57,791 bases of DNA from Ignavibacteria bacterium (GCA_049516635.1 JBEKSX010000008.1:1-57791), one strand, 5' to 3'; shown: positions 11,278 through 53,986, counted from the first letter of the stretch. Notes: generated by a model from the sequence alone, not told the origin. A program made the numbers and translations.

Positions 11278-12867
11278 CTACTTAATAATATTTTTATAGA
11301 GTTTGATCACTTTCTCACATTCATTATTGTTAGATGGAACAAGCTTCATATAATTCAATAATGCTGCTAGTTTATCACCTACTTTTAATGAGATCATTCC
11401 CAGGTAGTAATGAAGGTCAAAATCCGAATATGTATCCTCTTTAAATAAAGCCCTGTCATTCCCGGGTTTAAGGTCAAGAATCAGCCTGTATTCGTATGCC
11501 TTATCAAAAAGACTTTTTGCCTTTGAATAATAACCTGATCTATAATAATACTTTCCTAACTGGAAATATGCTCTGTAAAATTCCGGTTCTTTTTTAATTG
11601 CAAGTTTATATTGTTTTAATGCATTCACACTGTCACCAATATCTTCATAAATAGTACCGAGTTTGTAAAATACGTCAGCTTTTACATCGTCTTTCCCCTC
11701 AACCATTCCGTATAATTTCTTTATCTCACCGAAATTTTTAAGGCGAAGGTAATAAGTTTCCAGTGATTTTGTTAAGTATTGCAGCTGCGGATCATCTTTG
11801 AATATTCTTCGAGCATTATTGTACACTTCTTCTGCTTTCTCAGGTTTACGTATCTTAAGATAAAAATCTATGAGGTCGTCATATGTATCAAAGTATGCTG
11901 AATCAAGGGAGAAGCATTTTTTATAATAACTTTCAGTTTTATGAATGTAAATATTGTTCAAAGAATCCCGATCAACATTATTTCCGGAAGTTGATGTATC
12001 ATCTGGCAATGATGATGCCCTGGCATAAAGATTTTTTCTCGAAGAATCATCGAATAAACAATAGGTCTTAATTTCTTTTTTCAAGGCACTTGCCACTTCA
12101 AGAAAATTTTTAATTCTTTCATTTATCTTTTTCGGTGTCATCACGACCGCTGAGGGAGATCCCGTATCGTTTAAAGGCATAAGTTTTTTAAAACAATTTA
12201 TTGCTACTCCGAAATTCAAATTACCAAACGCCAGGTAATTATATGATGTAATCCCTATTACTTCTCCCATGGAATTGAAAAACGCTCCTCCGCTATTACC
12301 CGGTGAAACTGCAGCATCGGTCTGGATCACCCTTTCAAAGACCACCTGCTCCCCATCTAAATATTCTTCTGCATTGTCCCTGATCCCTGAGATTATTCCC
12401 TGTGATATTGAATATTCATAACCCATGGGGCTGCCAATTGTATAGATAGCTTCTCCTGTTTTTAATTCATCGGAATTGCCCATCGTAATGCATTGAAATG
12501 AGTCGGTTTCACCGGCATGGATCTTTAACAAAGCAAGGTCATTTATAGTGTCACAGGATATTATGCTCGCCGGAAAAAAAGTTCCGTTTGAAGTCTTAAC
12601 AATAATTGTATCTATATTTGATATCACGTGATAACACGTTGCAACAAATCCCTCTCCGCTGACTATAAACCCGCTTCCCCAAATCACGAGAGTATCAAAT
12701 GAATATTCTTTCTTTATCTCATTGAAATATGCTTCATCAAATGTCCATATCGAGACAAGAGCCGGTTTATTTGATTCGAGAATTTGTTCTGCATCCTGGG
12801 AATAGAGGAAGTTATTGTTCAGAAAAATGGATAATGCGGTCAATATTGAAAATATTATTGATCTCAT
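11278..12867 (-). CDS. trypsin-like (S1C/HtrA-family) serine protease fused to C-terminal TPR repeats
   Basis: 529-aa ORF with signal peptide. Catalytic triad context TCYHVI (His), NDLALLKI (Asp), SPGNSGGAFFN (Ser). No PDZ-like region seen; instead TPR-like helical repeats (YFQLGKYYYRSGYYSKAKSLFDKA etc.). Confidence 0.8.
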   Translation of the reverse strand: MRSIIFSILTALSIFLNNNFLYSQDAEQILESNKPALVSIWTFDEAYFNEIKKEYSFDTLVIWGSGFIVSGEGFVATCYHVISNIDTIIVKTSNGTFFPASIISCDTINDLALLKIHAGETDSFQCITMGNSDELKTGEAIYTIGSPMGYEYSISQGIISGIRDNAEEYLDGEQVVFERVIQTDAAVSPGNSGGAFFNSMGEVIGITSYNYLAFGNLNFGVAINCFKKLMPLNDTGSPSAVVMTPKKINERIKNFLEVASALKKEIKTYCLFDDSSRKNLYARASSLPDDTSTSGNNVDRDSLNNIYIHKTESYYKKCFSLDSAYFDTYDDLIDFYLKIRKPEKAEEVYNNARRIFKDDPQLQYLTKSLETYYLRLKNFGEIKKLYGMVEGKDDVKADVFYKLGTIYEDIGDSVNALKQYKLAIKKEPEFYRAYFQLGKYYYRSGYYSKAKSLFDKAYEYRLILDLKPGNDRALFKEDTYSDFDLHYYLGMISLKVGDKLAALLNYMKLVPSNNNECEKVIKLYKNIIK

Positions 12868-14836: not shown

Positions 14837-16072
14837 TTATTTTAACAACACCATTTGCCTGGTATCCGAATAATTCCCGGCAGTGATTGTATAAAAATAC
14901 ACTCCGCTGGGATAGCCGGTTCCGTCCCATTCCACCTCATAGCTGCCAGGCATCAATTCTTTATTTATGAGCTCAGCAACGGTCCTTCCCAGAACATCAA
15001 ATACTTTAATCGTAACAAAATTGTGGCCTGCCGTTTGAAACTTTATTTTTGTTACTGGGTTAAACGGGTTCGGATAATTCTGAAATAGACAGAATTTATC
15101 GGGAACTGAATTCCATGCAGGCTCGATAGCTACGTAACCGCTTGTTGTTTTTAAGATAGTACCATTCGAACCTACTGAATAACCTGTGTTCGGAACCGGG
15201 AAATAGACTGAATGGAGATCATTGTTAGTACCGGATACCAGATGCATCCAGTTAACACCGCTGTTTGTGGTATGGAGTATCGTTCCATTCTGTCCTACTG
15301 TATATCCTACGCTGGAATAAGTGAAATGGATCTCATACAAATCATTAGTTGTCCCCGATACAAGCGGATTCCAGTTTGTACCGCTATTGATCGTTTTAAG
15401 TATAGTGCCGTTCATCCCGACCGCATATAGATTATTTATATCCATGTTATTCGAGAATCTTACATCGAGAAGAGAATTGTTGGTACCGGATGTCTGCGGA
15501 TTCCAGTTTGTGCCTCCATTCGTTGTACAACGTATTGTACCCGCTGAACCTACTACAAATCCTCTGCCTGCAGGTATAAAATTCACTTCATACAGGTCAT
15601 TATTTGTGCCGGATGTCTGGGCTACCCAGTTTGTACCGCTGTTAGTAGTTTTACGAATAGTACCATTAGAGCCCGCTACATAACCCGTATTATAATCAGC
15701 AAAGAATATTTCATAAAGTGTATTGTTTGTACCCGAAGTTTGAGCAGTCCAGTTGGTACCACCGTTTGTAGTTTTTCTAATGGTTCCGTTAGTCCCTGAG
15801 ACATATCCGGTTGTAACATTGAGGAAAAAAACTTCATAGAAGTCATTTGTTGTACCCGATGTAATGCTATTCCAATTGGTACCACCGTTGGTTGTCTTAC
15901 GGATTGTACCGTTGGTTCCTACAGCATAACCTGTGTTAGCATCCAGGAAATATACCGAATAGAAGTCTTGAGTAGTACCAGATACTTGTTGTACCCAGGT
16001 TGTTTGTGATTGAATAAGTTCAGTAAATAAAAACAGGAGCAGGAAGATTGAGATAAAGTTAAATTTTCTCAT
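14837..16072 (-). CDS. Ycf48/BNR-like beta-propeller protein with T9SS C-terminal sorting domain
   Basis: 411-aa ORF with signal peptide. Seven or more TTN[GS]GTNW repeats. NYPNPFNPVTKIKF...GVYFYTI...RQMVLLK. Confidence 0.8.
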   Translation of the reverse strand: MRKFNFISIFLLLFLFTELIQSQTTWVQQVSGTTQDFYSVYFLDANTGYAVGTNGTIRKTTNGGTNWNSITSGTTNDFYEVFFLNVTTGYVSGTNGTIRKTTNGGTNWTAQTSGTNNTLYEIFFADYNTGYVAGSNGTIRKTTNSGTNWVAQTSGTNNDLYEVNFIPAGRGFVVGSAGTIRCTTNGGTNWNPQTSGTNNSLLDVRFSNNMDINNLYAVGMNGTILKTINSGTNWNPLVSGTTNDLYEIHFTYSSVGYTVGQNGTILHTTNSGVNWMHLVSGTNNDLHSVYFPVPNTGYSVGSNGTILKTTSGYVAIEPAWNSVPDKFCLFQNYPNPFNPVTKIKFQTAGHNFVTIKVFDVLGRTVAELINKELMPGSYEVEWDGTGYPSGVYFYTITAGNYSDTRQMVLLK

Positions 16073-16408: not shown

Positions 16409-17617
16409 TTATTTAAGCAGTACCATCTTTTTAACATCGGTAAATTCACCTGCTCCGCCGGTAGCTGATATTTTGTAGAAATAAACGCCGCTCGGGTTAT
16501 TTGATGCATTCCATTCTACTGAATATGAACCCGGTTCTAAACGAGAATTTACCAGTGTAAATACTTCCTGACCGGTTGTACTGTAGATTACAATCTTTAC
16601 ATTACTAAATTTTGGAATATCAAACTTTATCGTGCTTGACGGATTAAACGGGTTTGGATAGTTTTGAGATAATTTATATTCAGAGGGTACTTCAAATGAA
16701 ATAGGTTTGATACCAATAAGTTCTGATATAGGTCTACGCCACAATCCGTTCATTTCGGAACCTGCAAATATATATTCGTTTGCTATTAATAGATTCAGGA
16801 TGTTAATACTTCCCATACCTTCATTTTTTTGTGTCCAATTTTGCCCGTTATCTGTTGAAATAAATACACCGGGACTTTGTGTACCAATAATCATATTGTT
16901 ACTAAAAAAAACAATTGCATGAACACACTGATCGAATGAACCGAGAGGGTTCCAATCTACACCGTTATTTGTAGAAAGATATAACGCTATGCCACCGCCG
17001 CACATACCTGCGTAAATATTGTTTCCGTTATAAGCCAAGGAACTTACGAACAGGTAGTTCAAACCATCCTGTATCCAATTCTGACCATAATTTGTCGAGC
17101 GGTAAACCCCAAATGCATTGGTTCCTGCAAAAATTAATGAATCTTTGATCAAAAGTGAAGCAACATTGCCGATATTCATAGATGTTTGAACCCATGTTTG
17201 TCCGTTATTTGTTGAGCGGCTCACTCCGCCGGGTGTACCGACAAAAACGTTACTGTTCGATATACCTATACAATTTACCAACTGGTTATTCACTGAATAA
17301 CCAGTCCAATTAACTCCATAATTAGAAGTAATATATATTCCATTTCCGGCATCAGCCGTGCCTGCAAAAACATAGTTACTACCAGCCGCAATAGCATAAA
17401 CAATTTGATTATTCATTGGAGTCTGCGTCCAGTTTTGCCCGTTATTGGTAGAAGTAAACACACCATTAAATCTGGCACCTGCGAAAATAACCATATCTTT
17501 TATTGCAAGAGAATAAAAAGTTATATTATTGGATGGACCTACCTGTACCCATTGAGCTGCAGAATATTGGATTTGCAAACAGAGTACAATAGAGCAGAAA
17601 ATTAATATTTTTTTCAT
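16409..17617 (-). CDS. beta-propeller repeat protein with T9SS C-terminal sorting domain
   Basis: 402-aa ORF with signal peptide. STNxGxNW repeats (STNNGQNW, SNYGVNWT, STNNGQTW, STNYGQNW, STDNGQNW). NYPNPFNPSSTIKFDIP...GVYFYKI...KKMVLLK. Confidence 0.8.
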   Translation of the reverse strand: MKKILIFCSIVLCLQIQYSAAQWVQVGPSNNITFYSLAIKDMVIFAGARFNGVFTSTNNGQNWTQTPMNNQIVYAIAAGSNYVFAGTADAGNGIYITSNYGVNWTGYSVNNQLVNCIGISNSNVFVGTPGGVSRSTNNGQTWVQTSMNIGNVASLLIKDSLIFAGTNAFGVYRSTNYGQNWIQDGLNYLFVSSLAYNGNNIYAGMCGGGIALYLSTNNGVDWNPLGSFDQCVHAIVFFSNNMIIGTQSPGVFISTDNGQNWTQKNEGMGSINILNLLIANEYIFAGSEMNGLWRRPISELIGIKPISFEVPSEYKLSQNYPNPFNPSSTIKFDIPKFSNVKIVIYSTTGQEVFTLVNSRLEPGSYSVEWNASNNPSGVYFYKISATGGAGEFTDVKKMVLLK

Positions 17618-18527: not shown

Positions 18528-20357
18528 TTATTTCACTTCATCAAATATTATTTTTAAAATTATTTTTATCTCTTCAGGATAAATTAGCATTTCTTTTTTT
18601 TCGTATTGATTTAGTCCCTCCATTCCATCTTTAAGAAAAGGATAAATGGATATAACTTTATCAAGATATTGCTTAGTTTTATCCAGACAACCTTTTTTAT
18701 AGTATGAAATAATTAAACCTATATAAGAGTCGATCTGTATATATGATGAATTTTCATAAACTTTATAAAAAAGTTCTATCGATTTTAAAAATAATTCAAT
18801 CGCTTTTTCTAAATTAGATTTTATAAAATATATCCAGCCAAGGTTATTATAAAACTCTCCACGATTGGGATTAATTGAAATAGCTTTTTTAAATTCAATC
18901 ATTGCTTCATCATATTTTTTTAACCGCATATAGGCGCCTCCTCTGCCATCATAATAGCGATATAAAATTTGTGAATCAGATTCCAATTCAATAGCTATAT
19001 TAAAATTTTTAATTGCTTCGTTAAATCTTTTCAATCTATAATTAATCAGGCCTTTAACATAATAAATATCAGGATAATGTGGTCTTAGTGAACTGCATTT
19101 ATCTAAATCATTCATTGCATCTTCAAACCGGTTAAGATGTGAATAAGCATTTCCTCTTAGTATATATGCTTCATATAGATCGTTCTTTAAATTGATTGCC
19201 TTTGTCAAAGCAGAAACAGATAATTCCGGAGACATATAATTAGTAATTAAATTAAAGTATCGTTGGATTTTTTTACCAATTAAGAGCAAAGCATTATAAT
19301 CGTCCAATACATTAATAATATTTTTTAAAAAATCATGTTTATCAAAATTACTGTCATCAATAAAATCAAGGTAAGCTTCGTCCACAGATATTTTATCTTT
19401 TTTAAAACTTATCAGCAGTTCTTTTGCTTCTAATTTTTTTAAATTATTATCCCACCCAAGCTTTGATAAGTTGAGCTCAAAAATTTTGCCTACAAGCTTA
19501 ATGTGATCAATGTAATAATCTTCCTTGTCATAATATAAACCTGCAAAGTTTAGCAGCTTTATTATTTGCATTATTTCCTGTTCGACATTACTTAAAGAAT
19601 TGTACCTTGTTTTCATGGCTTCCAGATCCATAAACAATGACCCGATATTACCATCAAAATGTTTTGGAATTTCTAAATTCAATTCTTTTGCAACATTCCC
19701 GCAGTTTTCTTTTTCTATTTTATCTATTTTAATTATTTTGAAAAGATTAATTTCATTTTCCAGGGTCTGCTTTAATTGGTTAAATTCATCTCCGGAACGG
19801 CAGGTAGCAATTATCAAACTATTTTTTATGATTGATGGAATTAACAGCTTAATTTCATTATATAAATTTATATCGTCTAAAATGATTATACGCTTCTTTT
19901 TTGATATCAGGTTTATTTGTTCCTGTAAATATATAATATCATTAACATGATGTTTCGGGTAAGCTATGTTAATTATTTTATTAATATTTTTCAAAGATTG
20001 ATAAACAGATCTTGTTTTTCCTGCAAGCGGACTGCCAAGAATTAACATGTGATTTTTATTTTCTGTATTTATAAAGTTTTCAATACACTCTTTAATTGAA
20101 TTATCAATATCTCTGTTGAAATATTTCTCATTGAAGTTTAAATATTCAGTACCTCTTGTTCTGAGCAGATCATAAGGTTTTAAATCGGAAGATCTTCCAA
20201 AATAATAGAATAAAGCTTTCTTTCTTTTTCTATTCTCTTTAAAATTTTTGAAAGGATGGGAAACAAATTCTATGATTACCGCGGCAATTATGGCAAGTAG
20301 AATAGCAATATAAAGTTCCAAAGGATGCTCATTAATATACTTAATTATTTCTTCCAT
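18528..20357 (-). CDS. membrane-anchored P-loop NTPase with C-terminal TPR repeats
   Basis: 609-aa ORF. N-terminal TM helix (LYIAILLAIIAAVIIEFV). Walker A is GSPLAGKTRS and Walker B is RIIILDDINLY. C-terminal third holds TPR-like repeats (YILRGNAYSHLNRFEDAMNDLDK...). Very AT-rich by eye. Confidence 0.7.
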   Translation of the reverse strand: MEEIIKYINEHPLELYIAILLAIIAAVIIEFVSHPFKNFKENRKRKKALFYYFGRSSDLKPYDLLRTRGTEYLNFNEKYFNRDIDNSIKECIENFINTENKNHMLILGSPLAGKTRSVYQSLKNINKIINIAYPKHHVNDIIYLQEQINLISKKKRIIILDDINLYNEIKLLIPSIIKNSLIIATCRSGDEFNQLKQTLENEINLFKIIKIDKIEKENCGNVAKELNLEIPKHFDGNIGSLFMDLEAMKTRYNSLSNVEQEIMQIIKLLNFAGLYYDKEDYYIDHIKLVGKIFELNLSKLGWDNNLKKLEAKELLISFKKDKISVDEAYLDFIDDSNFDKHDFLKNIINVLDDYNALLLIGKKIQRYFNLITNYMSPELSVSALTKAINLKNDLYEAYILRGNAYSHLNRFEDAMNDLDKCSSLRPHYPDIYYVKGLINYRLKRFNEAIKNFNIAIELESDSQILYRYYDGRGGAYMRLKKYDEAMIEFKKAISINPNRGEFYNNLGWIYFIKSNLEKAIELFLKSIELFYKVYENSSYIQIDSYIGLIISYYKKGCLDKTKQYLDKVISIYPFLKDGMEGLNQYEKKEMLIYPEEIKIILKIIFDEVK

Positions 20358-20982
20358 TTATAACTTTTTCTGCTTATCTAAGAAAGTCATTTATCAATCA
20401 ATAAATTATGGAAATTTTACATTATTTTGTATACATTTCTATATAAATATTCGTGTTGATCCTATTCAAAAAATAGTTAATAAAACTATTTAGCTGAAAT
20501 GAGAGGAAGAGCAAACATTAACACTAAAGTCCACTCCAGTTATTCGTTATATCAAGATTTTACAAATCAATTGAGGAGAGAATAGGATAGCCATGAGAAG
20601 AGCTTTTATTAATTTCGCTTTACCTCTGTGATAAGGTATAAATAATATTACATGATAACTAATAAATATAGCTTTTAAAATCCTATAAGCAACAGGTGAG
20701 AATTTATTATTAAATGCTAAAATATATGATGATCTGAATGAAGCAGTAAATTTGAAGAAGGAATTAAAAACAAATAAAAATGCTGAATTTTATCATTAGT
20801 TTCAAGAAAAGATAAAAGAGTTGGAAAATAAATTAAAAACAAAAGTCTAGAAATTGTGGATCCAAGCAATTCATCTCTTCAGTGAGGTAAATTAAAAAAT
20901 AGATCAGGATAGCAAATGTTAAGGTCAATCTTATTACCACATACTTATAGAAAAAAACTGACTCTATCCGAATCCTTTTTTC

Positions 20983-21027
20983 GTGAGGCTGGGAGGTCTC
21001 GAACCTCCGACCCTCTGCTTAAAAGGC
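20983..21027 (-). repeat. distal att direct repeat: copy of the 3' 44 nt of tRNA-Lys plus 1 nt
   Basis: 43/45 identical to 53914..53958. The mismatches (20993, 21007) are the paired positions of the T-stem (GGAGG/CCTCC versus GCAGG/CCTGC). The repeat ends 2 nt into the 5' strand of the anticodon stem. Confidence 0.8.
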
Positions 21028-21107
21028 GTGTAATGTGGTAATAACTGTTCAAAATACGGCACTTTTCGCAAGATTATTGCACTAATTTACACCAGTAATT
21101 ACCTTCT

Positions 21108-21130
21108 TAGTCACTAAAATAGTCACTAAA
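21108..21130 (+). promoter_or_regulatory. tandem TAGTCACTAAA repeats (candidate integrase arm-type sites, distal arm)
   Basis: TAGTCACTAAA at 21108 and 21120 (12-bp register). The same tandem arrangement occurs at 53857/53869. Confidence 0.55.
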
Positions 21131-21489
21131 AAAGAGAACGGCAATTTTTAAAAATGAACGATTATTAGCTCTACTACTCCATACAGTTTCTCGGCGAGTA
21201 GATTTTCTTTCGGTACAAATATAATATATAAAACTGAAAATTGTTATGTCACTAAGATTTACATCACAAAAATGACATGACCGTAAATGAATAAAAGACG
21301 TACAAAGTCTAACTTAATTTCCAAAATGTATCGGATGAGAAATGACTAACATAAAGGCTGGGGTAATATACTTAGAAGAATAACAAGGGAAATTTAGAAT
21401 TGGGATTTACCACTTGGATTCCTGTTTACTAAAGATTCTATAGAAGTCTACTATATTAGGCAGTACTGCTATAATACAATTGATAATTA

Positions 21490-23301
21490 TTAGTCACTAG
21501 TTATTGGATTTCCAAAGAAACCTCTAATTTTCTCCTTTTGGGTAGTATAAATTCCATCAACAATCGTAGCTGTAATTAATTCTGCATCAATATTTTCAAC
21601 ATCAGCAAAGGATACTGTAATTGAGACATTATTATTATTGGGAGCATTTGGATCACAAACCAAGATTTTATATCTTTGATCTGATTTCGGAATCGGATGA
21701 TAACCTATAGCAATTACCTGATGATCGATATTCCAGTCGGTACCTCCTTCTCCACTAATTAGCACAATCGTAATCGGGCTGCCACCATCAAGCGTCGGCC
21801 TAATTACATTATTCCATTCTTGCACAGTTGCCCAGCCAACACTGTGTTCTGGATTCCACCAACTTCCCTGGTCAGGCCGCAGATTGTGCCATTCGTAAAT
21901 CTTTGACCATACTCCATCGAGAAGAGGTGTTGGTACTCCTAGTGGATTGAGTGGCGTTCCGATTGAGTCACATTGTCGACTCCAAATCTCGCTTAATAAA
22001 GGATCCCCATTACTTGGTAATGGAGTGTCCCTTGCAATTGGGATATCTTTGAAAAATCTATCCAAAGCGGTCCAACACCAGCCACCGCAATAACCCCATG
22101 GGTTATCAAAAGGCCAGCCATGAACTGAAGGAATAAAAGCTGTTACGACAATTTGAGCGTCCCAAATTGTTCCTGCCCCACTTTTCCCAATAACAAAGTT
22201 TCCCAAAGTATTGAGAATTGCAAAATAGTCACCTTCGCCTGGTGCTACATGAGTGTCCCATATTGGAGCGCCGTCTTCTTCCCTATATATTACGAAATTA
22301 CCATCTCCTTGCATTATTGCATAGTAATGTAGAGGGATAGGTGCAGGAGTTGGTGTGGTATTCAAGCAATGTTCGAGTGCTTTCTTTGCATTCGACAAGT
22401 CAGATTGGACCCTTCGTATCTCTGCAAGTAGTGCCGTTTTAGAACCGTGACCATGCTGGAGATCATCTTGTAATGAATGTAATTCTGATTCGATTGAATT
22501 GACTAAGTTTCTCTCGGCTTCACAAGGCGTAGATTGTGGCTGCTGTGGCGTATATGATGTTGGCTGATTAGAATATGTACACCAAACTGCACCATTGTCA
22601 GGAGATGGCAATTCACCACGATAAATGACTAAGTTGGCATCTTCTTGCATTACTAGACAATATTTCCCATTGCATGAGACTAAATACTCTCCAGCTGCTA
22701 GCCGATTAACACTTTCTAGACGGTATTTCCTGTTTATCCAAAGACAATTGCTAAAATCATTTATATCTGTTCCCCTATATACACCAAAAGTTCCATCATC
22801 ATGAATCGCAACAAAATAATCAGAAGTTGCTTCATGTACACCAATATCCCAGGTAAACGCTGGATGGGACCAACCACTTTCCAATATAAATGTTGCAAAA
22901 TCACCATCATTCTGCATAATAGCATAGGAATCACCTTCAGTGAATATTCTGCCTGTTGACCAGTAAACACTATGGCTGTCGGAAGGTCCTGATCCTTCGT
23001 AGAGAACAAGGTTACCGTCATGTTGCATTATCAAATAATATCTTGCTGACGGAGAAACTATATATTCTCCACCATTTAGGCGTTCATTGGTTTTGAGAGT
23101 ACTTTTTTGTGGTTGAGGTGGATGTGGAGATTTCAAACAATTTTCAAGTGCTTTTTTTGCATTTGCTAGCTCAGATTGTACTCTTCTTATCTCAGCAAGT
23201 AATGCTGTTTTAGAACCATGGCCATGATGGAGATCATCTTGTAATGAATGTAATTCAGATTCGAGAGAACTGACTAAGTTTCTTTCAGCTTCGCAAGGCA
23301 T
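21490..23301 (-). CDS. multidomain protein: 2x Cys-bracketed helical module + bulb-type (B-) lectin subdomains + C-terminal papain-like Cys/His/Asp domain
   Basis: 603-aa ORF with no signal peptide. Residues 2-56 and 259-313 are near-identical (PCEAERNLV...HGHGSKTALLAEIRRVQS...AKKALE.CL). QxDxNxVxY motifs: MQHDGNLVLY, MQEDANLVIY, MQGDGNFVIY, plus degenerate copies. C-terminal GYCGGWCW ... DHQVIAIGY ... LVCDPN. Confidence 0.7.
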   Translation of the reverse strand: MPCEAERNLVSSLESELHSLQDDLHHGHGSKTALLAEIRRVQSELANAKKALENCLKSPHPPQPQKSTLKTNERLNGGEYIVSPSARYYLIMQHDGNLVLYEGSGPSDSHSVYWSTGRIFTEGDSYAIMQNDGDFATFILESGWSHPAFTWDIGVHEATSDYFVAIHDDGTFGVYRGTDINDFSNCLWINRKYRLESVNRLAAGEYLVSCNGKYCLVMQEDANLVIYRGELPSPDNGAVWCTYSNQPTSYTPQQPQSTPCEAERNLVNSIESELHSLQDDLQHGHGSKTALLAEIRRVQSDLSNAKKALEHCLNTTPTPAPIPLHYYAIMQGDGNFVIYREEDGAPIWDTHVAPGEGDYFAILNTLGNFVIGKSGAGTIWDAQIVVTAFIPSVHGWPFDNPWGYCGGWCWTALDRFFKDIPIARDTPLPSNGDPLLSEIWSRQCDSIGTPLNPLGVPTPLLDGVWSKIYEWHNLRPDQGSWWNPEHSVGWATVQEWNNVIRPTLDGGSPITIVLISGEGGTDWNIDHQVIAIGYHPIPKSDQRYKILVCDPNAPNNNNVSITVSFADVENIDAELITATIVDGIYTTQKEKIRGFFGNPITSD

Positions 23302-23376
23302 AATAGCCTCCCTTCTTTTTTCTTTTAAGAGATTTCTAATTTAGATTACTTTGATTTTTACTGGAATGTAACAAAG

Positions 23377-23865
23377 CTAATTCTTTATTTTCTTATCAAT
23401 ATTTTGCATGCTATCTAGGCTTTTGAATTTCTTATACATAATTTCTTTTGTACTATTAATTTTTACTATATTTGCATCTATTTTTCCATTAGATACTTTG
23501 ATTGAGTCTAAGGTGTTTAATAAATTATCTTTATTATCGATTTGTTTTGTGGATTTTAATTTTGTTTCAACATAAATAAGTCGTTTTGAAATATTATCTT
23601 TCTCCTTTTTAATTTCATCAACTTGTGTAATGGTTGAATCATAATTACTTTTTAATTCGTTATATGTTTCTATGGTGATTTCACCTTTAGATGAAAGCGT
23701 AACTTTGTGCAAGATTGGTAACATGAGTAGAACAATACCAACTACCATGATCCAACCTCCATGAGGAGGTAATTTTTTATTCTTATAGAGCAAAATTAAA
23801 ATAAGTACTAAGAATGCTGTACCTAATATTATTCCAATTATAAATGTTATATTTTGAGGTTCCAT
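23377..23865 (-). CDS. small membrane protein (2 TM helices) with coiled-coil tail
   Basis: 162-aa ORF. FIIGIILGTAFLVLILILLY and IMVVGIVLLMLPIL hydrophobic helices, then a Lys/Asn/Ile-rich heptad-like region. Confidence 0.55.
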   Translation of the reverse strand: MEPQNITFIIGIILGTAFLVLILILLYKNKKLPPHGGWIMVVGIVLLMLPILHKVTLSSKGEITIETYNELKSNYDSTITQVDEIKKEKDNISKRLIYVETKLKSTKQIDNKDNLLNTLDSIKVSNGKIDANIVKINSTKEIMYKKFKSLDSMQNIDKKIKN

Positions 23866-23926
23866 AAGTTTAATTAAATAAAATTTTAAAAATATGAATC
23901 TATTTTAATATTATATTCTATATTTT

Positions 23927-25864
23927 TTAATGTCGTTCCCACTGTATATCTAAATTACCATAAATAGGAAATGGCTGATCATTATCCACAATAATTTGTG
24001 GCTGAGATGGATTATTATTTGATTTATCAAGGTAAAATGCGTTCCAATCTGCAAAATAATAACTTGTTGCTTCATAACTTGTTGTTTCAATTCCACCAGC
24101 GATGATATCAAGAGAAGCAAAACCTAAAAGAAGTGAATTTGTAATTGCTTCTACAAGTGGTATCAAATCTTTATTATAACCAGCAGTCAATTCTTCTTTT
24201 GATATGTGTCTTGAAATTGATCTAGGTAAATTGGCTTGATTATTCTCATCATTAGTTGGATCCATATTTATAATAACAGTAATTGCTTCTAATGAAGTAT
24301 ATTCAAATAAGATTCTTACTGTGGAACGAGTAACAAACCAATAACTGACTTTCAACTTATCATTCTTAAACATGCGGTTAGATGGTGGTCTTAAAGTTAT
24401 TTTTACAGTATATTGTTGAGAAAATGAGGGTATAATTATCTTAGGGTCAGCCTTTATTTGATAAGGAATAAGAGAAAAAGAAGCAAACGTAAGTTCCTTT
24501 TCAAAATGTTTAAAAAGAGGATCTTCTCCTTCCCAAAGGTAACCTTCTTTCATTATTTGACTTACCAGATATGGGTTTGATATGAATCTAGAAACTGTTG
24601 CATCATTATTCCATTTTGATGCATGCACGATTAAAAGAGGGGGGTGAATTTCAGTATGAAAATCATCATGTCCAGCATCAACAATCCAACGCCCGAGTAC
24701 AGCAACCCGATCTCCGAATTTCACTCTATAATCTCCTGGAACCAAATTGGAATCAGTTTCGACACCAAGTACCCCTTTGATTGGCATACCTAATTCCTTT
24801 TTTGCAGTATCAATTGCATCTCTAAACTCTCCATCAACATTCGGTCCATTATCAAAATTGTTTGGAGCTAAAATCCATTCAAATCTTTCGTCCGGTACGA
24901 TAAAGAACTCCCAATCAAAACCGAATGGATGAGTAAACGGCATATCATTTCCGGAGATTTTGGGATTAACAGCGTAACCTGAAATTCCTACACATGAACC
25001 ATCCTCTTTCCCGTTATCCAAAACCGGCATCCATTCAAATCTTGGGTCTTCACCACTTAACAATGTATTTTTATTGCAAAAGTTTTTAGCCCAATCGGGA
25101 TGATAATAAGAGTTTGTAAAGTCAGGAATCTGCGGATTATTATATTTCATTGTCAGAATTGGTGGGGCAGGATAAGTAAAGCTATTTATTCCGCTATACT
25201 CTTTTGGGACTCCATCAATAGTTAACGAAATACCCCAATTGTAGTTACCATGGTAAGGCAGATTCTTAAGGGAATATTTTTTTGAAGAATACAAACTGCC
25301 ATTTTCGTATGTGTAATCTTTCGTGCTATCTTCATAGCAGATACTGTTATCCCCTGAAAAAGATAAAATTAAATGGAATGTTACTTTCAAGGGATCATAT
25401 AAGGCAGATGATGTTGCAGGGGGAAGTTTTGGATAACCAGGGTATTTGGGTTTCAAATATACAGTGCGGCTATATGAACCACCAGGATCATGCCATTTCC
25501 ATTTGAAAATTAAAATAGTATCAGAACCAGACTCGATATCTCCCACAGTAAATCCATCCAGAGGATAAAGTAATTGAATCATTTGAGTTTTAATCATTTT
25601 GCCTTTTGCTACCAAATATTTTCTTCCCCAAAATTCCTTTAATAATTTAGCCTTTTCTTCTTTCATAATTTTGAAAGTATCAAGTAAGTTTTGATCATAA
25701 TAATCGTAAACCTGTTTTGATTCGTAGGTGTAGAGATTGGGATTTTTGAAGAGGTTTAAATAGCGGAATAATTGTTGATCAGGAGATGGTTTAATGTGAG
25801 AATTTAGTAATGAGCAAAAAAATAAAATGATAAAGATTGAAAGTGAAATGAATATCTTTTTCAT
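23927..25864 (-). CDS. secreted protein of unknown function
   Basis: 645-aa ORF with signal peptide (IFISLSIFIILFFCSLLNS). No domain recognised. First gene of the three-gene same-strand cluster. Confidence 0.6.
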   Translation of the reverse strand: MKKIFISLSIFIILFFCSLLNSHIKPSPDQQLFRYLNLFKNPNLYTYESKQVYDYYDQNLLDTFKIMKEEKAKLLKEFWGRKYLVAKGKMIKTQMIQLLYPLDGFTVGDIESGSDTILIFKWKWHDPGGSYSRTVYLKPKYPGYPKLPPATSSALYDPLKVTFHLILSFSGDNSICYEDSTKDYTYENGSLYSSKKYSLKNLPYHGNYNWGISLTIDGVPKEYSGINSFTYPAPPILTMKYNNPQIPDFTNSYYHPDWAKNFCNKNTLLSGEDPRFEWMPVLDNGKEDGSCVGISGYAVNPKISGNDMPFTHPFGFDWEFFIVPDERFEWILAPNNFDNGPNVDGEFRDAIDTAKKELGMPIKGVLGVETDSNLVPGDYRVKFGDRVAVLGRWIVDAGHDDFHTEIHPPLLIVHASKWNNDATVSRFISNPYLVSQIMKEGYLWEGEDPLFKHFEKELTFASFSLIPYQIKADPKIIIPSFSQQYTVKITLRPPSNRMFKNDKLKVSYWFVTRSTVRILFEYTSLEAITVIINMDPTNDENNQANLPRSISRHISKEELTAGYNKDLIPLVEAITNSLLLGFASLDIIAGGIETTSYEATSYYFADWNAFYLDKSNNNPSQPQIIVDNDQPFPIYGNLDIQWERH

Positions 25865-26414: not shown

Positions 26415-26436
26415 TACCCATATATTTATATGGGTA
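26415..26436. promoter_or_regulatory. 22-bp palindrome TACCCATATA-TT-TATATGGGTA (candidate LexA operator) over the dinB promoter
   Basis: Perfect 10-bp inverted arms. Sigma70-like TTGACT (26398-26403), 17-nt spacer, TATATT (26421-26426) inside the palindrome. Confidence 0.65.
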
Positions 26437-28441: not shown

Positions 28442-28463
28442 TACCCATATATTTATATGGGTA
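28442..28463. promoter_or_regulatory. second perfect copy of TACCCATATATTTATATGGGTA over the promoter of the lexA-divergent small gene
   Basis: Identical 22-mer to 26415..26436. TTGCAA (28425-28430), 17-nt spacer, TATATT (28448-28453). Confidence 0.65.
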
Positions 28464-28895: not shown

Positions 28896-30164
28896 TTATT
28901 TCATCAGGACCATTTTTCTGGTCTCAATAAACTCACTGGTAATCAATTTATAATAATACACTCCGCTTGGATAATTAGATGCATCCCAATTTACTTGATA
29001 TGTTCCAGGATTCTGTTTTTCATTTACTAAAATTGTTACTTCTTTACCTAAAGCATCATAAACAGTTAATTGAACGTAACCAGAAATTGGTAATTGGTAA
29101 TTAATTTTTGTTGTTGGGTTGAACGGGTTTGGGTAGTTTTGGCTAAGATTAAATCGTTCAGGAATACTACTACTAATAGGTTTAATGCCTGTTACGTTTC
29201 CACCTGTCGTAGTTTTAAAAATAGTTCCATTATCACCTACAGCCCAGCCTGTCATTTGATTGGAAAAGAAGATTGAACGCAGAATTAACCCCGATCCATT
29301 GAACTGGCTAAACCAATTAATTCCTCCGTTTGTTGTATTCATTATTGTTTCATTATCACCAACTATCCAACCGATGTTTTGATTTACAAAGTATATTGAC
29401 GATAGACAATTACTAGTCATGTTGAATTGACTAAACCAATTTGTTCCTGAATTCGTTGTTTTCATTATTGTATAACAACTAACTACCCATCCCTTATATT
29501 GATTTATGAAATAGGCAGAGACAAAATAAGGATAGTTTACACCAGATTGAATAAACCAATCTGTACCTCCATTGGTTGTTTTTTTGATAATCCCACCATT
29601 ATCGTCTCCGCCAACCACCCACCCCGTGTTTTGATCTGTAAAAGAAACATAATATAAAACCACATGATAGGCCCAATTGGATTGTAAAAACCAACTGGAT
29701 CCACCATTTGTTGTCTTAAATATGATTTCACCTCCATTATAAGTATAACCACCTACAACCCATCCAGTATTTTGATCTAGGAAGTAAACTGAAGTCAGAC
29801 AGTAATTATTAGAAGAAAATTGACTAAACCATTTTATTCCCCCGTTTGTTGTCTTAATTATTAAATCATTAGCTACTGCCCACCCTGTATTTTGATCTAT
29901 GAAATAAACTGAAAAGAAAGCATAATTTGTGGCTCTGTACTGCTTAAACCAATTAGCTCCTCCATTTGTTGTCTTAATAATTACTCTTTCATTAGAAGAG
30001 CCACCCCCTCCAACTATCCAACCAGTATTTTGATTTATGAAATATACAGAATATAGAGTTGCATCAGTGCCGCTAGCCTGCGTAAACCAGCCTGACTGAG
30101 ATTGTAAGTTAGAATACGAAAAGAGGATAATTAGAAATGATATTGCAATGATTATTTTTTTCAT
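28896..30164 (-). CDS. Ycf48/BNR-like beta-propeller protein with T9SS C-terminal sorting domain
   Basis: 422-aa ORF with signal peptide. TTNGGxxWF repeats. NYPNPFNPTTKINYQLP...GVYYYKL...RKMVLMK. Confidence 0.8.
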   Translation of the reverse strand: MKKIIIAISFLIILFSYSNLQSQSGWFTQASGTDATLYSVYFINQNTGWIVGGGGSSNERVIIKTTNGGANWFKQYRATNYAFFSVYFIDQNTGWAVANDLIIKTTNGGIKWFSQFSSNNYCLTSVYFLDQNTGWVVGGYTYNGGEIIFKTTNGGSSWFLQSNWAYHVVLYYVSFTDQNTGWVVGGDDNGGIIKKTTNGGTDWFIQSGVNYPYFVSAYFINQYKGWVVSCYTIMKTTNSGTNWFSQFNMTSNCLSSIYFVNQNIGWIVGDNETIMNTTNGGINWFSQFNGSGLILRSIFFSNQMTGWAVGDNGTIFKTTTGGNVTGIKPISSSIPERFNLSQNYPNPFNPTTKINYQLPISGYVQLTVYDALGKEVTILVNEKQNPGTYQVNWDASNYPSGVYYYKLITSEFIETRKMVLMK

Positions 30165-33397: not shown

Positions 33398-35365
33398 ATG
33401 GAAAGAAAATTTTTAGTAACAGTTGTTCTCACCTTCGTGCTCTTGATGCTGCATATAAGCGAACTTAATTCCCAATGGATCCAGACCAACGGACCAAACG
33501 GCGGCAGAGTATTTTGTTTAGCCGCAAACGGCACGAATATCTTTGCCGGGACTTGGGCAGGTTTATTTTTTTCCTCAAATAACGGAGCAAACTGGACAGC
33601 GGCCAATAACGGTTTGACTACTACTAATGTTCGTTCTCTTATGTTTTCTGGCACGAATGTCTTCGCCGGTACTCATGGCGGCGGCGTTTTTCTTTCCACT
33701 AATAACGGAACAAGCTGGACGGCGGTCAATAACGGCATAGCGAGTCCTTTTGTTTATTCTTTGGCAGTTTCGGGCACAAATCTTATCGCCGGGACTTTGG
33801 GCAACGGCGGCGGCATCTTTCTTTCTACCAACAACGGCACAAGCTGGACGCTGGTCAATAACGGATTGACCAATATTAGTGTTTATGCTCTTGCTGTCTC
33901 CGGTACAAATATCTTCGCTGCGACTTTGGGCGGAGTTTTTCTATCCACCAATAACGGAACAAGCTGGACGGCAGTTAATTCCGGCTTGATAACTAATTCT
34001 ATTTATAACCTTGCAGTCTTGGGCACGAATATCTTCGCCGGGACTCATGGCGACGGAGTCTATTTATCCACCAACAACGGCTCAAACTGGACGGCAGTTA
34101 ACTCCGGCTTGACCAATGCTGTTGTTTATGCCCTTGCAGTTTCGGGCACAAATCTCTTTGCGGGGTCTTGGGGCAGCGGCGTATTTCTTTCCACCAACAA
34201 CGGCTCAAACTGGACGGAGGTCAGTTCCGGCTTGACTAGCAATAAAATTCAGACTCTTGCAGTCTCGGGTACAAATGTGTTCACCGGGACTGATGGCGAC
34301 GGCGTCTATCTTTCCACCAACAACGGCACAAACTGGACCGGGGTTAATTCCGGCTTAGCAAATACTGATGTTTATGCCCTCGCGGTCTTAGGCACTAATC
34401 TCTTCGCAGGGACTTTTGGAGGCGGAGTTTTTCTTTCAACAAATAATACAAGCTGGACGGCAGTTAATTCGGGTTTGCCGATTACGAATATTGTTGGTTA
34501 TGCTCTTACAGTCTCGGGCACGAATCTCTTCGCAGGAATTGATGGCAGCGGGATCTTTCGTTCCACCAATAACGGTACAAGCTGGGATTCGGTCAATACC
34601 GGATTGACAAACAAATATATCCGAACTCTTGCGGTTTCGGGCGCGAATATCTTCGCAGGGACTTTTGGCGGCGGAGTTTTTCTTTCAACGAATAACGGCA
34701 CAAGCTGGGCTGCAGTCAATTCCGGCTTGACGAATACTATTGTTTATGCCCTTGCAGTTTCGGGCGCGAATATCTTTGCCGGTACTTCCAGCAGCGGTGT
34801 TTTTCTTACCACCAACAACGGTACAAACTGGACGGAGGTCAATAACGGCTTGACGAACACTAATGTTCTTGCTCTTGCTGTCACAGGCGCGAATCTCTTT
34901 GCGGGGACCAGGCTCGGTGTCTTTGTTTCCGCCAATAACGGCACAAGCTGGAGTGAGGTCAGTTCCGGTTTGACCAATACCTATGTTATTTCCCTTGCAG
35001 TTTCAGGCACAAATCTCTTCGCCGGTACCTGGGGCAGCGGCGTCTGGAGACGACCGCTCTCTGAATTGGTTTCTGTGCGGATAATTTCGAGCGATTTGCC
35101 AACAGAGTTTGGCTTGAGGCAGAACTATCCCAATCCGTTTAACCCGGCAACAAAAATAAGATTCACCTTGCCAAAGCGTTCATTTGCAAAACTTGTCATT
35201 TATGATGCACTCGGAAGAGAACTGGAAACAATAGTTAACGAACAATTAAACGCGGGAACTTACGAGGTCGATTGGTCCGGAGATAAGTTTTCGAGCGGCG
35301 TTTATTATTGTAAATTGTCCTCCGCGGATTTTGTTGTAACGAAGAAAATGGTGCTTCTAAAATAA
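33398..35365 (+). CDS. highly repetitive beta-propeller-type protein with T9SS C-terminal sorting domain
   Basis: 655 aa with signal peptide. About 14 tandem ~41-aa units (VFLSTNNGTSWTAVNSGLTN..VYALAVSGTNLFAGT). NYPNPFNPATKIRFTLP...GVYYCKL...KKMVLLK. Confidence 0.8.
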   Translation: MERKFLVTVVLTFVLLMLHISELNSQWIQTNGPNGGRVFCLAANGTNIFAGTWAGLFFSSNNGANWTAANNGLTTTNVRSLMFSGTNVFAGTHGGGVFLSTNNGTSWTAVNNGIASPFVYSLAVSGTNLIAGTLGNGGGIFLSTNNGTSWTLVNNGLTNISVYALAVSGTNIFAATLGGVFLSTNNGTSWTAVNSGLITNSIYNLAVLGTNIFAGTHGDGVYLSTNNGSNWTAVNSGLTNAVVYALAVSGTNLFAGSWGSGVFLSTNNGSNWTEVSSGLTSNKIQTLAVSGTNVFTGTDGDGVYLSTNNGTNWTGVNSGLANTDVYALAVLGTNLFAGTFGGGVFLSTNNTSWTAVNSGLPITNIVGYALTVSGTNLFAGIDGSGIFRSTNNGTSWDSVNTGLTNKYIRTLAVSGANIFAGTFGGGVFLSTNNGTSWAAVNSGLTNTIVYALAVSGANIFAGTSSSGVFLTTNNGTNWTEVNNGLTNTNVLALAVTGANLFAGTRLGVFVSANNGTSWSEVSSGLTNTYVISLAVSGTNLFAGTWGSGVWRRPLSELVSVRIISSDLPTEFGLRQNYPNPFNPATKIRFTLPKRSFAKLVIYDALGRELETIVNEQLNAGTYEVDWSGDKFSSGVYYCKLSSADFVVTKKMVLLK

Positions 35366-52760: not shown

Positions 52761-53810
52761 CTAATATTCTATTTTCACCTTATTTACTGCTTCTCTCAAA
52801 TCTTCTGTTTCGATGTGAACGTACCCCATAGTTGTATTTAAGTTACTGTGACCGGCCAGCTGTTTTGCATAGTTGATGTTTACCCCGTTTCTGATGAGGT
52901 TTGTGATGAACGTGTGCCTCAAACAGTGAAAATGATACTTTTCAGGTAACCCCGCTAGCCTAAGGTAATTCTTGAATTTCTTTGAAACATAGTTCCCATT
53001 AAGTTTGATACCCTTAACACTGACAAATAGGTATCTCTCGGGTTCTGATAGCTCTATTACGTTTCCTGAGCGGTTTAGAATTGATTTTAAAAGCTCGTTC
53101 AGATGATCTGAGATTGGTATGAACCTTATTCTTCCGGTCTTGATTTTGAAATCAGGTTTATTTCTAATGGTAAGGATCATTTCCTGGAAATCAACATCTT
53201 TGAATTGGATATTCATTATCTCATTCAATCTGCAGCCGGTCAGAAGAGCGAAAATTATCAGCTTTTTGAAACGGTTATCTTCAATTAAATCCAATACCCT
53301 CTTCAATTCATCATCACCAAAACTTAATTTCTCTTTCTGCGGTATTGAAAATTGTTTAATGTACTGCATAGGATTGGATTCTAGATATCTCATTCTTACA
53401 GCATAATTGAAAACTGCTTTCAGGGTCCTGATCTCGATATTTACCGAGGTCTTACTAACCTCTCTGACTCTGACATTCTTATAATTCTCAAAGTCTTTGG
53501 GATTGTACAAATGAATCTCACGATTCCCCTGAATCCTCAACAGATTATTAACCGCGTTTCCGTAAATTATCAGTGTTTTGGAGGTGAAATTTGATTCAGC
53601 AAACTCGCAAATCTCTTTAGCAAGATTAGTAAGAAACCATCTGGTTTGCTTAATTCTGTCTACACTCGATCTGTTTCGAGCGAAATTCCAAAGGAACCTT
53701 TCGGCTTCCTTTTTAGTCCTTTTTCCTGTTGAGATTTTTGTTCTTTTACCCGTGGAGGGGTTGACGAAATACAGGTCATAGAGACCTTTATACCCTTTTG
53801 AGATGAACAT
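52761..53810 (-). CDS. tyrosine recombinase / phage-type integrase
   Basis: 349 aa. LLTGCRLNEI (Arg), HCLRHTFITNLIRNG (H-x-x-R), LAGHSNLNTTMGYVH (His/Tyr). 104 nt from the tRNA-Lys 3' end. Confidence 0.9.
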   Translation of the reverse strand: MFISKGYKGLYDLYFVNPSTGKRTKISTGKRTKKEAERFLWNFARNRSSVDRIKQTRWFLTNLAKEICEFAESNFTSKTLIIYGNAVNNLLRIQGNREIHLYNPKDFENYKNVRVREVSKTSVNIEIRTLKAVFNYAVRMRYLESNPMQYIKQFSIPQKEKLSFGDDELKRVLDLIEDNRFKKLIIFALLTGCRLNEIMNIQFKDVDFQEMILTIRNKPDFKIKTGRIRFIPISDHLNELLKSILNRSGNVIELSEPERYLFVSVKGIKLNGNYVSKKFKNYLRLAGLPEKYHFHCLRHTFITNLIRNGVNINYAKQLAGHSNLNTTMGYVHIETEDLREAVNKVKIEY

Positions 53811-53879: not shown

Positions 53880-53914
53880 GCCTTATGGGAGGGTCAAAAA
53901 ACCGCAAAAATGAG

Positions 53915-53986
53915 TGAGGCTGGCAGGTCTCGAACCTGCGACCCTCTGCTTAAAAGGCAGATGCTCTACCACTGAGCTACAGCCCC
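53915..53986 (-). tRNA. tRNA-Lys (anticodon UUU)
   Basis: Manual fold. Acceptor is GGGGCTG/CAGCCTC (one G-U). D arm is GCTC-AGTGGTA-GAGC. Anticodon arm is TCTGC-CTTTTAA-GCAGA. Variable loop is GGGTC. T arm is GCAGG-TTCGAGA-CCTGC. Discriminator is A. CCA is not encoded. Confidence 0.9.

Follow-up and report, generated by a model that had tools for sequence, protein, structure and literature searches.

The closest described relatives of the system considered here are the lectin-like bacteriocins and the B-lectin bacteriocin albusin B. Lectin-like bacteriocins (Llps) kill through a short peptide at the C-terminus that mimics a beta-signal and binds to strand 1 of BamA (bioRxiv 10.64898/2026.09.25.754295), they contain no enzymatic or immunity module (PMC6240691; bioRxiv 10.64898/2026.09.25.754295), and most of the LlpAs have no signal peptide (PMC6240691). 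Albusin B of Ruminococcus albus 7 is a demonstrated bacteriocin that combines a B-lectin with a peptidase M15, and the MMBL lectins as a group are classically mannose-binding, with antifungal and nematicidal roles (PMC6240691). Here we analysed a stretch of 57,791 nt from an Ignavibacteria bacterium (GCA_049516635.1, JBEKSX010000008.1:1-57791; hereafter the window), in which three adjacent genes at positions 21490 to 25864 encode proteins of 645, 162 and 603 amino acids (aa). The 603-aa protein, the main subject of this work, carries a tandem MMBL lectin, two helical hairpins and a C-terminal papain-like (C39-like) domain. We are highly confident of this structural and domain description; the reading of the 603-aa protein as a glycan-targeted enzymatic toxin of the bacteriocin or polymorphic-toxin type is held more tentatively, as possible but somewhat short of probable.

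Domain structure of the 603-aa protein

The gene and the parts of its product are located as follows:

21490..23301, minus strand: gene 3, the 603-aa fusion protein (hairpin, lectin, hairpin, lectin, C39-like domain)
23128..23298, minus strand: helical hairpin 1, residues 2-58, bracketed by C3 and C55
22567..23103, minus strand: MMBL/B-lectin region a, residues 67-245 (domain 1 and the first subdomain of domain 2), with motifs at residues 93, 130, 167 and 219
22357..22527, minus strand: helical hairpin 2, residues 259-315, bracketed by C260 and C312
22147..22338, minus strand: MMBL/B-lectin region b, residues 322-385 (the rest of lectin domain 2), with an intact motif at residue 331
21493..22146, minus strand: papain-like (C39-like) domain, residues 386-603 (218 aa), with N400, C405, H527, D550 and a terminal RGFF strand
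22087..22089, minus strand: codon of C405, the putative nucleophile, at a helix N-terminus in the model
21721..21723, minus strand: codon of H527, the putative catalytic His, which opens a beta-strand in the model
21652..21654, minus strand: codon of D550, putatively the third residue of the triad and invariant in all 135 aligned sequences

The tandem MMBL lectin aligns to pyocins L1 and L2 over residues 3-169 and 175-224 with E about 1e-15 (best 2e-15; PDB 4le7, 9pxj), and the putidacin-L1 model NCBIfam NF033557 matches it with E 1.5e-26 and 93.4 bits, under the 275-bit cutoff of that model. Intact QxDxNxVxY motifs are found at residues 93 (QHDGNLVLY), 219 (QEDANLVIY) and 331 (QGDGNFVIY) and degenerate copies at 130, 167 and about 361, and these six subdomain motifs, together with six Trp residues forming two putative triads, identify two MMBL domains in tandem. 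A first-pass annotation of the window, made from the sequence alone, had reported intact and degenerate lectin motifs and a likeness to LlpA; the B_lectin, pyocin L1 and putidacin matches support the motifs, and those to pyocin L and NF033557 the likeness. In a PHROGs search only the lectin part was matched. No hydrophobic stretch of 19 residues occurs anywhere in the 603-aa protein, which thus has neither a signal peptide nor a transmembrane segment, and in this respect hydropathy agrees with the earlier statement that a signal peptide is absent.

The duplicated Cys-bracketed helical modules that had been noticed by eye are real. The underlying DNA copies (22340-22528 and 23111-23299) share 81% identity across 189 nt, against an initial estimate of about 85%, and the two protein copies are 80% identical across 64 aa. 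Both hairpins are predicted to fold as helix-turn-helix, with a predicted local distance difference test score (pLDDT) of about 90 even from a single sequence, and they are the only well-predicted parts in a single-sequence AlphaFold2 model of the full protein (pLDDT 47). Hairpin 2 interrupts the second lectin domain, lying between its subdomains, and the alignment to pyocin L1 resumes beyond the insert. The paired Cys residues at the hairpin bases suggest disulfides. A hairpin profile searched against PDB sequences found generic coiled coils only. When 120 members of the 645-aa protein's family were searched with a hidden Markov model of the hairpin, at least 7 proved to carry this Cys-bracketed module, placed at the N-terminus directly after Met, as in the 603-aa protein (P0343), present in two copies each (P0349, P0317) or located at the C-terminus (P0303, P0320, P0322, P0362). 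The same model found no copy in the window's own 645-aa or 162-aa protein. We regard a hairpin module common to two families as the most novel element of the finding, and its position within a beta-prism lectin as a testable clue to the assembly or delivery of signal-less toxins. A further-reaching proposal would be that this CxAER hairpin is an undescribed shared module for delivery, docking or oligomerisation, defining a group of signal-less glycan-targeted effectors with at least two unannotated warheads (the C39-like domain and the 645-family module), and that the operon of the window joins both of these with a membrane partner in one bacteriocin-like system of the Fibrobacterota-Chlorobiota-Bacteroidota (FCB) group; we consider this speculative and rather unlikely.

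Residues 386-603 gave no sequence match in Pfam, NCBIfam or PDB. When 1.84 billion cluster representatives were searched exhaustively, 441 of them were found to be relatives of the domain (E <= 1e-3). In an alignment of 135 domain sequences, D550 and G407 are kept in 100%, N400 in 94%, C405 in 93%, H527 in 91%, Q443 in 90% and the C-terminal RGFF motif in about 90%, so that the Cys, His and Asp residues first picked out in the window are both present and conserved among homologues. An AlphaFold2 model of the domain, built on a 51-sequence alignment (pLDDT 92.1, predicted template-modelling score 0.88), places C405 at the opening of a helix, H527 at the opening of a beta-strand and D550 after the next strand, while N400, five residues ahead of C405, occupies the position of the papain oxyanion Gln and is the putative oxyanion residue. 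The Cys, His, Asp and oxyanion Asn thus stand in the order and on the secondary-structure elements of clan CA, as far as the alignment and the predicted model tell.

When the 51 alignment members were scanned singly, Peptidase_C39_2 matched 17 of them (best E 8.4e-5, all below the gathering score), BtrH_N matched 2, and the NCBIfam 'putative cysteine peptidase' model matched 7. The C39_2 matches begin at the helix preceding the sheet, include 'NHQVVAxGY' and finish with 'YDPN', where the profile itself ends; the segment is the catalytic His/Asp half. None of the 51 members matched CHAP (PF05257) or NlpC/P60 (PF00877) at E <= 1, and none was matched by the M15, CHAP, NlpC/P60 or M23 models. Searching the C39-like profile against PDB sequences returned only insignificant matches to ficin, and Foldseek found no match for the domain in a viral library. 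The best PDB chain by Foldseek, and the only one given an appreciable probability, was 9jdd_A, the C-terminal domain of BtaeB (E 0.011, probability 0.89, template-modelling (TM) score 0.29-0.32). The papain-like fold proposed for the C-terminal region is supported by the conserved triad, the topology of the model and the recurrent weak C39_2, BtrH_N and cysteine-peptidase matches among relatives; the structure search itself gave no significant PDB neighbour. Taken together, alignment and model indicate that the domain is a divergent, unannotated C39-like family of clan CA with an intact putative triad, which would be expected to carry out amide-bond chemistry through the Cys nucleophile.

Fusion partners and possible targets

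Architectures were counted in 151 representatives of the C39-like family. The domain stands alone in 63, lies at the extreme N-terminus before a long extension in 55, follows another module as the C-terminal part in 29 and is internal in 4; it often begins at residue 2 of long proteins. Next to the standalone domain, the commonest form is an N-terminal domain in proteins of ~670 aa, whose extension family gave no match when its profile was compared with PDB sequences. An MMBL lectin is fused to the C39-like domain in 7 proteins. Other fused modules include hemopexin repeats, PLAT, DUF5648, a transthyretin-like N-domain, FG-GAP repeats behind a signal peptide, two copies of PG_binding_1 with an OmpA-like domain (one relative), and a signal peptide with a sorting tail of the type IX secretion system (T9SS) (one relative). 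An extension family of 13 proteins is a propeller lectin of the Photorhabdus PLL/PHL type (PDB 6rfz, E 3.5e-17), and in this subfamily (alignment A7; P0171, P0174, P0220 and others) the C39-like domain is N-terminal. The domains for targeting and toxicity are thus interchangeable on both the lectin side and the C39-like side, as in a polymorphic-toxin module.

Proteins that combine two hairpins, lectin and C39-like domain in full are rare. Besides P0391, an 89%-identical allele with the same architecture, P0121 (602 aa, from a high-GC organism) was the only one found in ~1.8 billion representatives, and a metagenome scan gave no closer full-architecture relative of the 603-aa protein. Four proteins (P0002, P0003, P0125 and P0148) carry the lectin and the C39-like domain without hairpins, in other gene contexts. 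Among 120 B-lectin homologues of the 603-aa protein, at least 39 bear cell-wall-active domains, including CHAP (12), NlpC/P60 (7), GH25-like PF08924 (8), M23 (2), M15 (2) and others. With these fusions, and with albusin B as a precedent (PMC6240691), the first-pass claim of an undescribed architecture was overstated. Since fusions of the C39-like domain to lectins and to wall-binding modules recur, and since B-lectins are often fused to wall hydrolases, with albusin B as the precedent, the view of the 603-aa protein as a glycan-targeted enzymatic effector, that is, a lectin-targeted enzymatic toxin, is upheld as the best reading of the sequence evidence.

The same B-lectin homologues raise the question of whether the protein could serve the producer itself in a housekeeping role, as an autolysin or an envelope-remodelling enzyme that the lectin positions on the producer's own surface polysaccharide, as many proteins from Actinobacteria that combine a B-lectin with CHAP, NlpC/P60 or M23 are annotated as ordinary wall hydrolases. 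The gene lies on a mobile island, however, its GC content at third codon positions (GC3) is atypical, the product has no signal peptide, and the architecture is rare and patchy, with one other full-architecture protein in about 1.8 billion representatives, all of which makes a housekeeping role highly improbable.

Modules such as PLL lectins, hemopexin and PLAT often serve against eukaryotic targets. Their fusion to the C39-like domain, with the propeller lectins being of fucose type, is consistent with a secreted protease or amidase directed by its lectin at eukaryotic or other non-bacterial glycoconjugates, such as mannans and mannoproteins of fungi, mosses or plants, for antagonism or nutrient release rather than to kill related bacteria. 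The origin of the sequence in peat and wetland metagenomes would fit such a target, as would the lack of an evident cognate soluble immunity protein and the mannose-binding, antifungal and nematicidal record of MMBL lectins (PMC6240691). Against this, the nearest lectins of solved structure are the antibacterial pyocin L and putidacin, one relative bears peptidoglycan-binding and OmpA-like modules, and the island gene stands beside a gene for a small membrane protein, which is the usual toxin-immunity arrangement. We therefore consider a eukaryotic target doubtful, although deserving of consideration.

Signal-like N-termini were seen in ~12 of the 151 family members, and the remaining ~139 leave room for an intracellular role in much of the family. 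An intracellular conflict or defence protease, for example one triggered by phage or foreign glycans with the lectin as sensor, would agree with this scarcity of signal peptides, with the domain often starting at residue 2 of long proteins, and with the genomic setting, since both the operon and several members of the family are found in variable regions, next to genes for STAND-NTPase/TPR, TIR or integrase proteins. PADLOC models matched none of the proteins, however, and fusions to lectin, peptidoglycan-binding, hemopexin, FG-GAP and T9SS-tail modules indicate an extracellular site, as do the Cys pairs of the hairpin bases if they form disulfides. Most LlpA bacteriocins likewise have no signal peptide (PMC6240691). 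We regard an intracellular protease as very unlikely.

The reading as a glycan-targeted enzymatic toxin has itself several points to answer. The possible intracellular role of many relatives is one; others are that no family member has a known activity, substrate or target, that the domain of the window has no Pfam or NCBIfam match of its own, and that Foldseek found no PDB neighbour at E <= 0.001. The lectin-fused subfamily of alignment A7 is variable at the catalytic Cys and His positions, and these proteins may thus be pseudo-enzymes. Furthermore, neither an export system nor a gene for lysis was identified, the operon has no SOS box nearby, and the membrane proteins encoded next to lectin and C39-like genes are not homologous to each other, their adjacency falling short of statistical significance (roughly p = 0.1 when either neighbour is allowed).

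If the 603-aa protein, whose gene is cargo on a tRNA-Lys island of an FCB-group peat bacterium, is a glycan-targeted enzymatic toxin, it would leave the producer without a Sec signal, like most LlpAs, through lysis or another route. Its lectin domains would bind surface glycans of competitors (lipopolysaccharide or another polysaccharide), and the Cys-His-Asp domain would cleave an amide bond of the envelope, likeliest in the peptidoglycan stem or cross-link, or else in a surface or periplasmic protein. The hairpins, possibly stapled by disulfides outside the cell, might act as spacer, oligomerisation or docking elements. The adjacent 162-aa protein, with two transmembrane segments and a tail predicted to be periplasmic, would be the best candidate for immunity or release, and the secreted 645-aa protein may be an independent second cargo enzyme rather than an obligate partner.

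The operon, its neighbours and the island

The other genes and boundaries to which the following refers are:

23927..25864, minus strand: gene 1, 645 aa (from open reading frame and hydropathy)
23377..23865, minus strand: gene 2, 162 aa (from open reading frame and hydropathy)
53914..53986, minus strand: tRNA-Lys(UUU), the proximal island end
52761..53810, minus strand: tyrosine integrase, adjoining tRNA-Lys
20982..21027, strand unassigned: distal att repeat, a 45-nt copy of the 3' half of tRNA-Lys, the island end

A recheck of open reading frames returned the three genes where they had first been placed, all on the minus strand and separated by gaps of 61 and 75 nt, and no terminator-like site was found within either gap. 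The identical order recurs in three other contigs, all of the same population. Together with the hairpins in at least seven 645-family members, which hint at a shared pathway, this arrangement would speak for the three genes forming one system composed of an enzymatic toxin, an immunity or export membrane protein and a secreted accessory protein. Evidence from other genomes argues otherwise. At 16 independent loci, homologues of the 603-aa protein or its C39-like domain are never beside a 645-family or 162-like gene; 11 genomic loci from diverse phyla (including Aegiribacteria, Chloroflexota, Nitrospirota, Gemmatimonadota and Betaproteobacteria) have no neighbour in common with each other or with the window; and six 645-family loci contain no lectin or C39-like gene. 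Nor are the families linked by fusion, as none of the extensions in the C39-like family corresponds to the 645-aa or 162-aa protein, and the hairpin is missing from both of these proteins in the window. The three genes are thus not co-conserved, so that the dedicated trio proposed in the first-pass annotation is not supported, and we now consider a single three-gene system quite unlikely.

P0121 has as its neighbours a secreted trypsin-like protease and a fragment of a metallophosphoesterase. The gene downstream at locus L040 was considered as a 645-family member and found not to be one. Genes for trypsin-like serine proteases were seen beside a 645-family gene (L006, 394-2154) and beside the closest homologue of the 603-aa protein (L004, 2264-3022), and the window has a similar Trypsin_2+TPR gene at 11278-12867, about 9 kb off; two of these protease genes carry TPR repeats. 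The recurrence of such genes near both families may be a coincidence.

The 162-aa protein has transmembrane segments at about residues 8-26 and 39-57 with a KNKK loop between them, followed by a hydrophilic, coiled-coil-like tail of ~105 aa, in keeping with its earlier description as a coiled-coil protein with two transmembrane segments. It matched no family beyond weak, non-significant matches. The positively charged KNKK loop places the tail, by prediction, in the periplasm, and the protein is a candidate immunity or release factor. An adjacent same-strand gene with 2-6 predicted transmembrane segments accompanies four of the five genes that combine lectin and C39-like domain (the window, L001, L002 and L040).

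The 645-aa protein, which could not initially be assigned to any family, indeed has no match in Pfam, NCBIfam or PDB, and the same is true of its family. Its one hydrophobic segment is N-terminal and signal-like (residues 1-24), as the first description of a secreted protein had it. The family comprises at least 554 homologues, separate from the relatives of the 603-aa protein, widespread and unnamed, and its members are found singly, in contexts that are unrelated or mobile. A C-terminal module of ~400 aa (residues ~235-645) contains invariant H312, D317, D325, E369, D396, H399, E405 and H407 (alignment A2) and the motifs PFTHPFGFDWEF and GRWIVDxGHxDFHTEIHPP, and relatives join this module to FG-GAP repeats, a PA-IL lectin or the CxAER hairpin. 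The eight invariant His, Asp and Glu residues suggest a metal or active site, and from its sequence this is probably an uncharacterised family of metallo-enzymes.

The operon had been placed just inside the distal end of a tRNA-Lys island, and this location holds. An integrase gene lies beside the tRNA gene and a direct repeat marks the far boundary, as expected of a tRNA-integrated genomic island; the distal att repeat is identical to tRNA-Lys at 43 of 45 positions, both changes being a compensatory swap of C·G to G·C in the T-stem. The tRNA, the integrase and the repeat of the tRNA 3' half together define an integrative island of ~33 kb, which ends ~460 bp past the stop codon of the 603-aa gene. 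Its cargo includes, besides the operon, lexA, a Y-family polymerase, Nramp, a TonB-type receptor and T9SS-tailed proteins, and the many neighbouring genes for T9SS-tailed proteins place the host in the FCB group. The first-pass statement that the three genes are AT-rich held in part: GC3 is low in all three (0.22-0.27), and the 162-aa and 645-aa genes have 25.6% and 33.9% GC, but the 603-aa gene, at 40.6%, is above the window mean of 37.2%. Many peat and wetland metagenome runs contain the window sequence.

Several further features of the region were recorded. Paralogous BNR/Ycf48-like repeat proteins with C-terminal T9SS sorting domains are encoded both inside and outside the island, at the following positions:

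7088-8827: BNR/Ycf48-like T9SS paralogue
9126-10424: BNR/Ycf48-like T9SS paralogue
14837-16072: BNR/Ycf48-like T9SS paralogue
16409-17617: BNR/Ycf48-like T9SS paralogue
28896-30164: BNR/Ycf48-like T9SS paralogue
33398-35365: BNR/Ycf48-like T9SS paralogue

Just beyond the island, a very AT-rich gene (18528-20357, 26.8% GC) encodes a 609-aa protein that has a transmembrane segment at the N-terminus, TPR repeats at the C-terminus and a weak STAND/AAA-type NTPase region, and may be a conflict or signalling gene. The 1.1 kb between this gene and the 603-aa gene (20358-21489) holds the att repeat, has no open reading frame of at least 60 aa, and includes an exact tandem duplication of the 12-mer TAGTCACTAAAA at 21108-21131. 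A 20-nt palindrome, ACCCATATATTTATATGGGT, has exactly two copies in the window (26416-26435 and 28443-28462; chance expectation 0) and is likely the SOS (LexA) box of the host organism. One copy overlaps the Y-family polymerase gene at its start, and the second is found 82 nt upstream of lexA. As the ATG at 26430 falls within the first of these, translation of the polymerase probably begins at the following ATG (26439). SOS control of the operon is not supported, since the promoters of lexA and the polymerase are the only sites of the likely LexA box, and the closer of the two copies is ~550 nt from the start of the operon.

Comparison with described systems

If the 603-aa protein is active as proposed, it would extend the lectin-like bacteriocins past the non-enzymatic, BamA-blocking Llps of Pseudomonas to a lectin-guided enzyme in an uncultured peat bacterium, and would provide the first functional handle on two unannotated families, with at least 441 representatives of the C39-like domain and at least 554 homologues of the 645-family module. 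Lectin-guided hydrolases are also candidate scaffolds for narrow-spectrum antibacterials.

With LlpA and the L-type pyocins (putidacin L1, pyocin L1/L2) the 603-aa protein shares the tandem MMBL domains, the lack of a Sec signal peptide and a gene in the accessory genome. It differs from them in its two hairpins and in ending in a 218-aa Cys-His-Asp domain instead of a peptide mimicking a beta-signal. We therefore rejected its assignment as an LlpA, given that it scores 93 bits against the 275-bit cutoff of NF033557 and that an enzymatic-type domain takes the place of the short C-terminal extension. In the order of its parts, with an N-terminal B-lectin for targeting and a C-terminal hydrolase, it resembles albusin B and the fusions of B-lectins to CHAP, NlpC/P60, M23, M15 or GH25-like domains. 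In contrast to albusin B, its C-terminal domain is C39-like with no M15 match, its lectin is in tandem, and hairpins are present.

The C-terminal domain is comparable to Peptidase_C39_2 (PF13529) and BtrH_N (PF14399) in the Cys...His...Asp order, in the His/Asp half of its relatives and in the predicted papain-like topology. However, the best score among relatives was 19.9 against the 24-bit gathering score of PF13529, the domain of the window has no match, and the Cys half (GxCGGMCW) is divergent; unlike C39 peptidases, moreover, the 603-aa gene has neither an ABC-transporter context nor a double-glycine substrate. The C-terminal domain of BtaeB (9jdd_A), a type VI secretion system (T6SS) effector of Bacteroides fragilis that was crystallised with its immunity protein, is an interbacterial effector domain and comes from the same broad phylogenetic group, but the TM score of 0.29-0.32 and the identity of 14%, with no sequence-level match and no T6SS context in the window, set the two apart. 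In conclusion, the design of a lectin-targeted enzymatic bacteriocin or toxin is already known, and what is new here is an unannotated papain-like family and a novel hairpin module.

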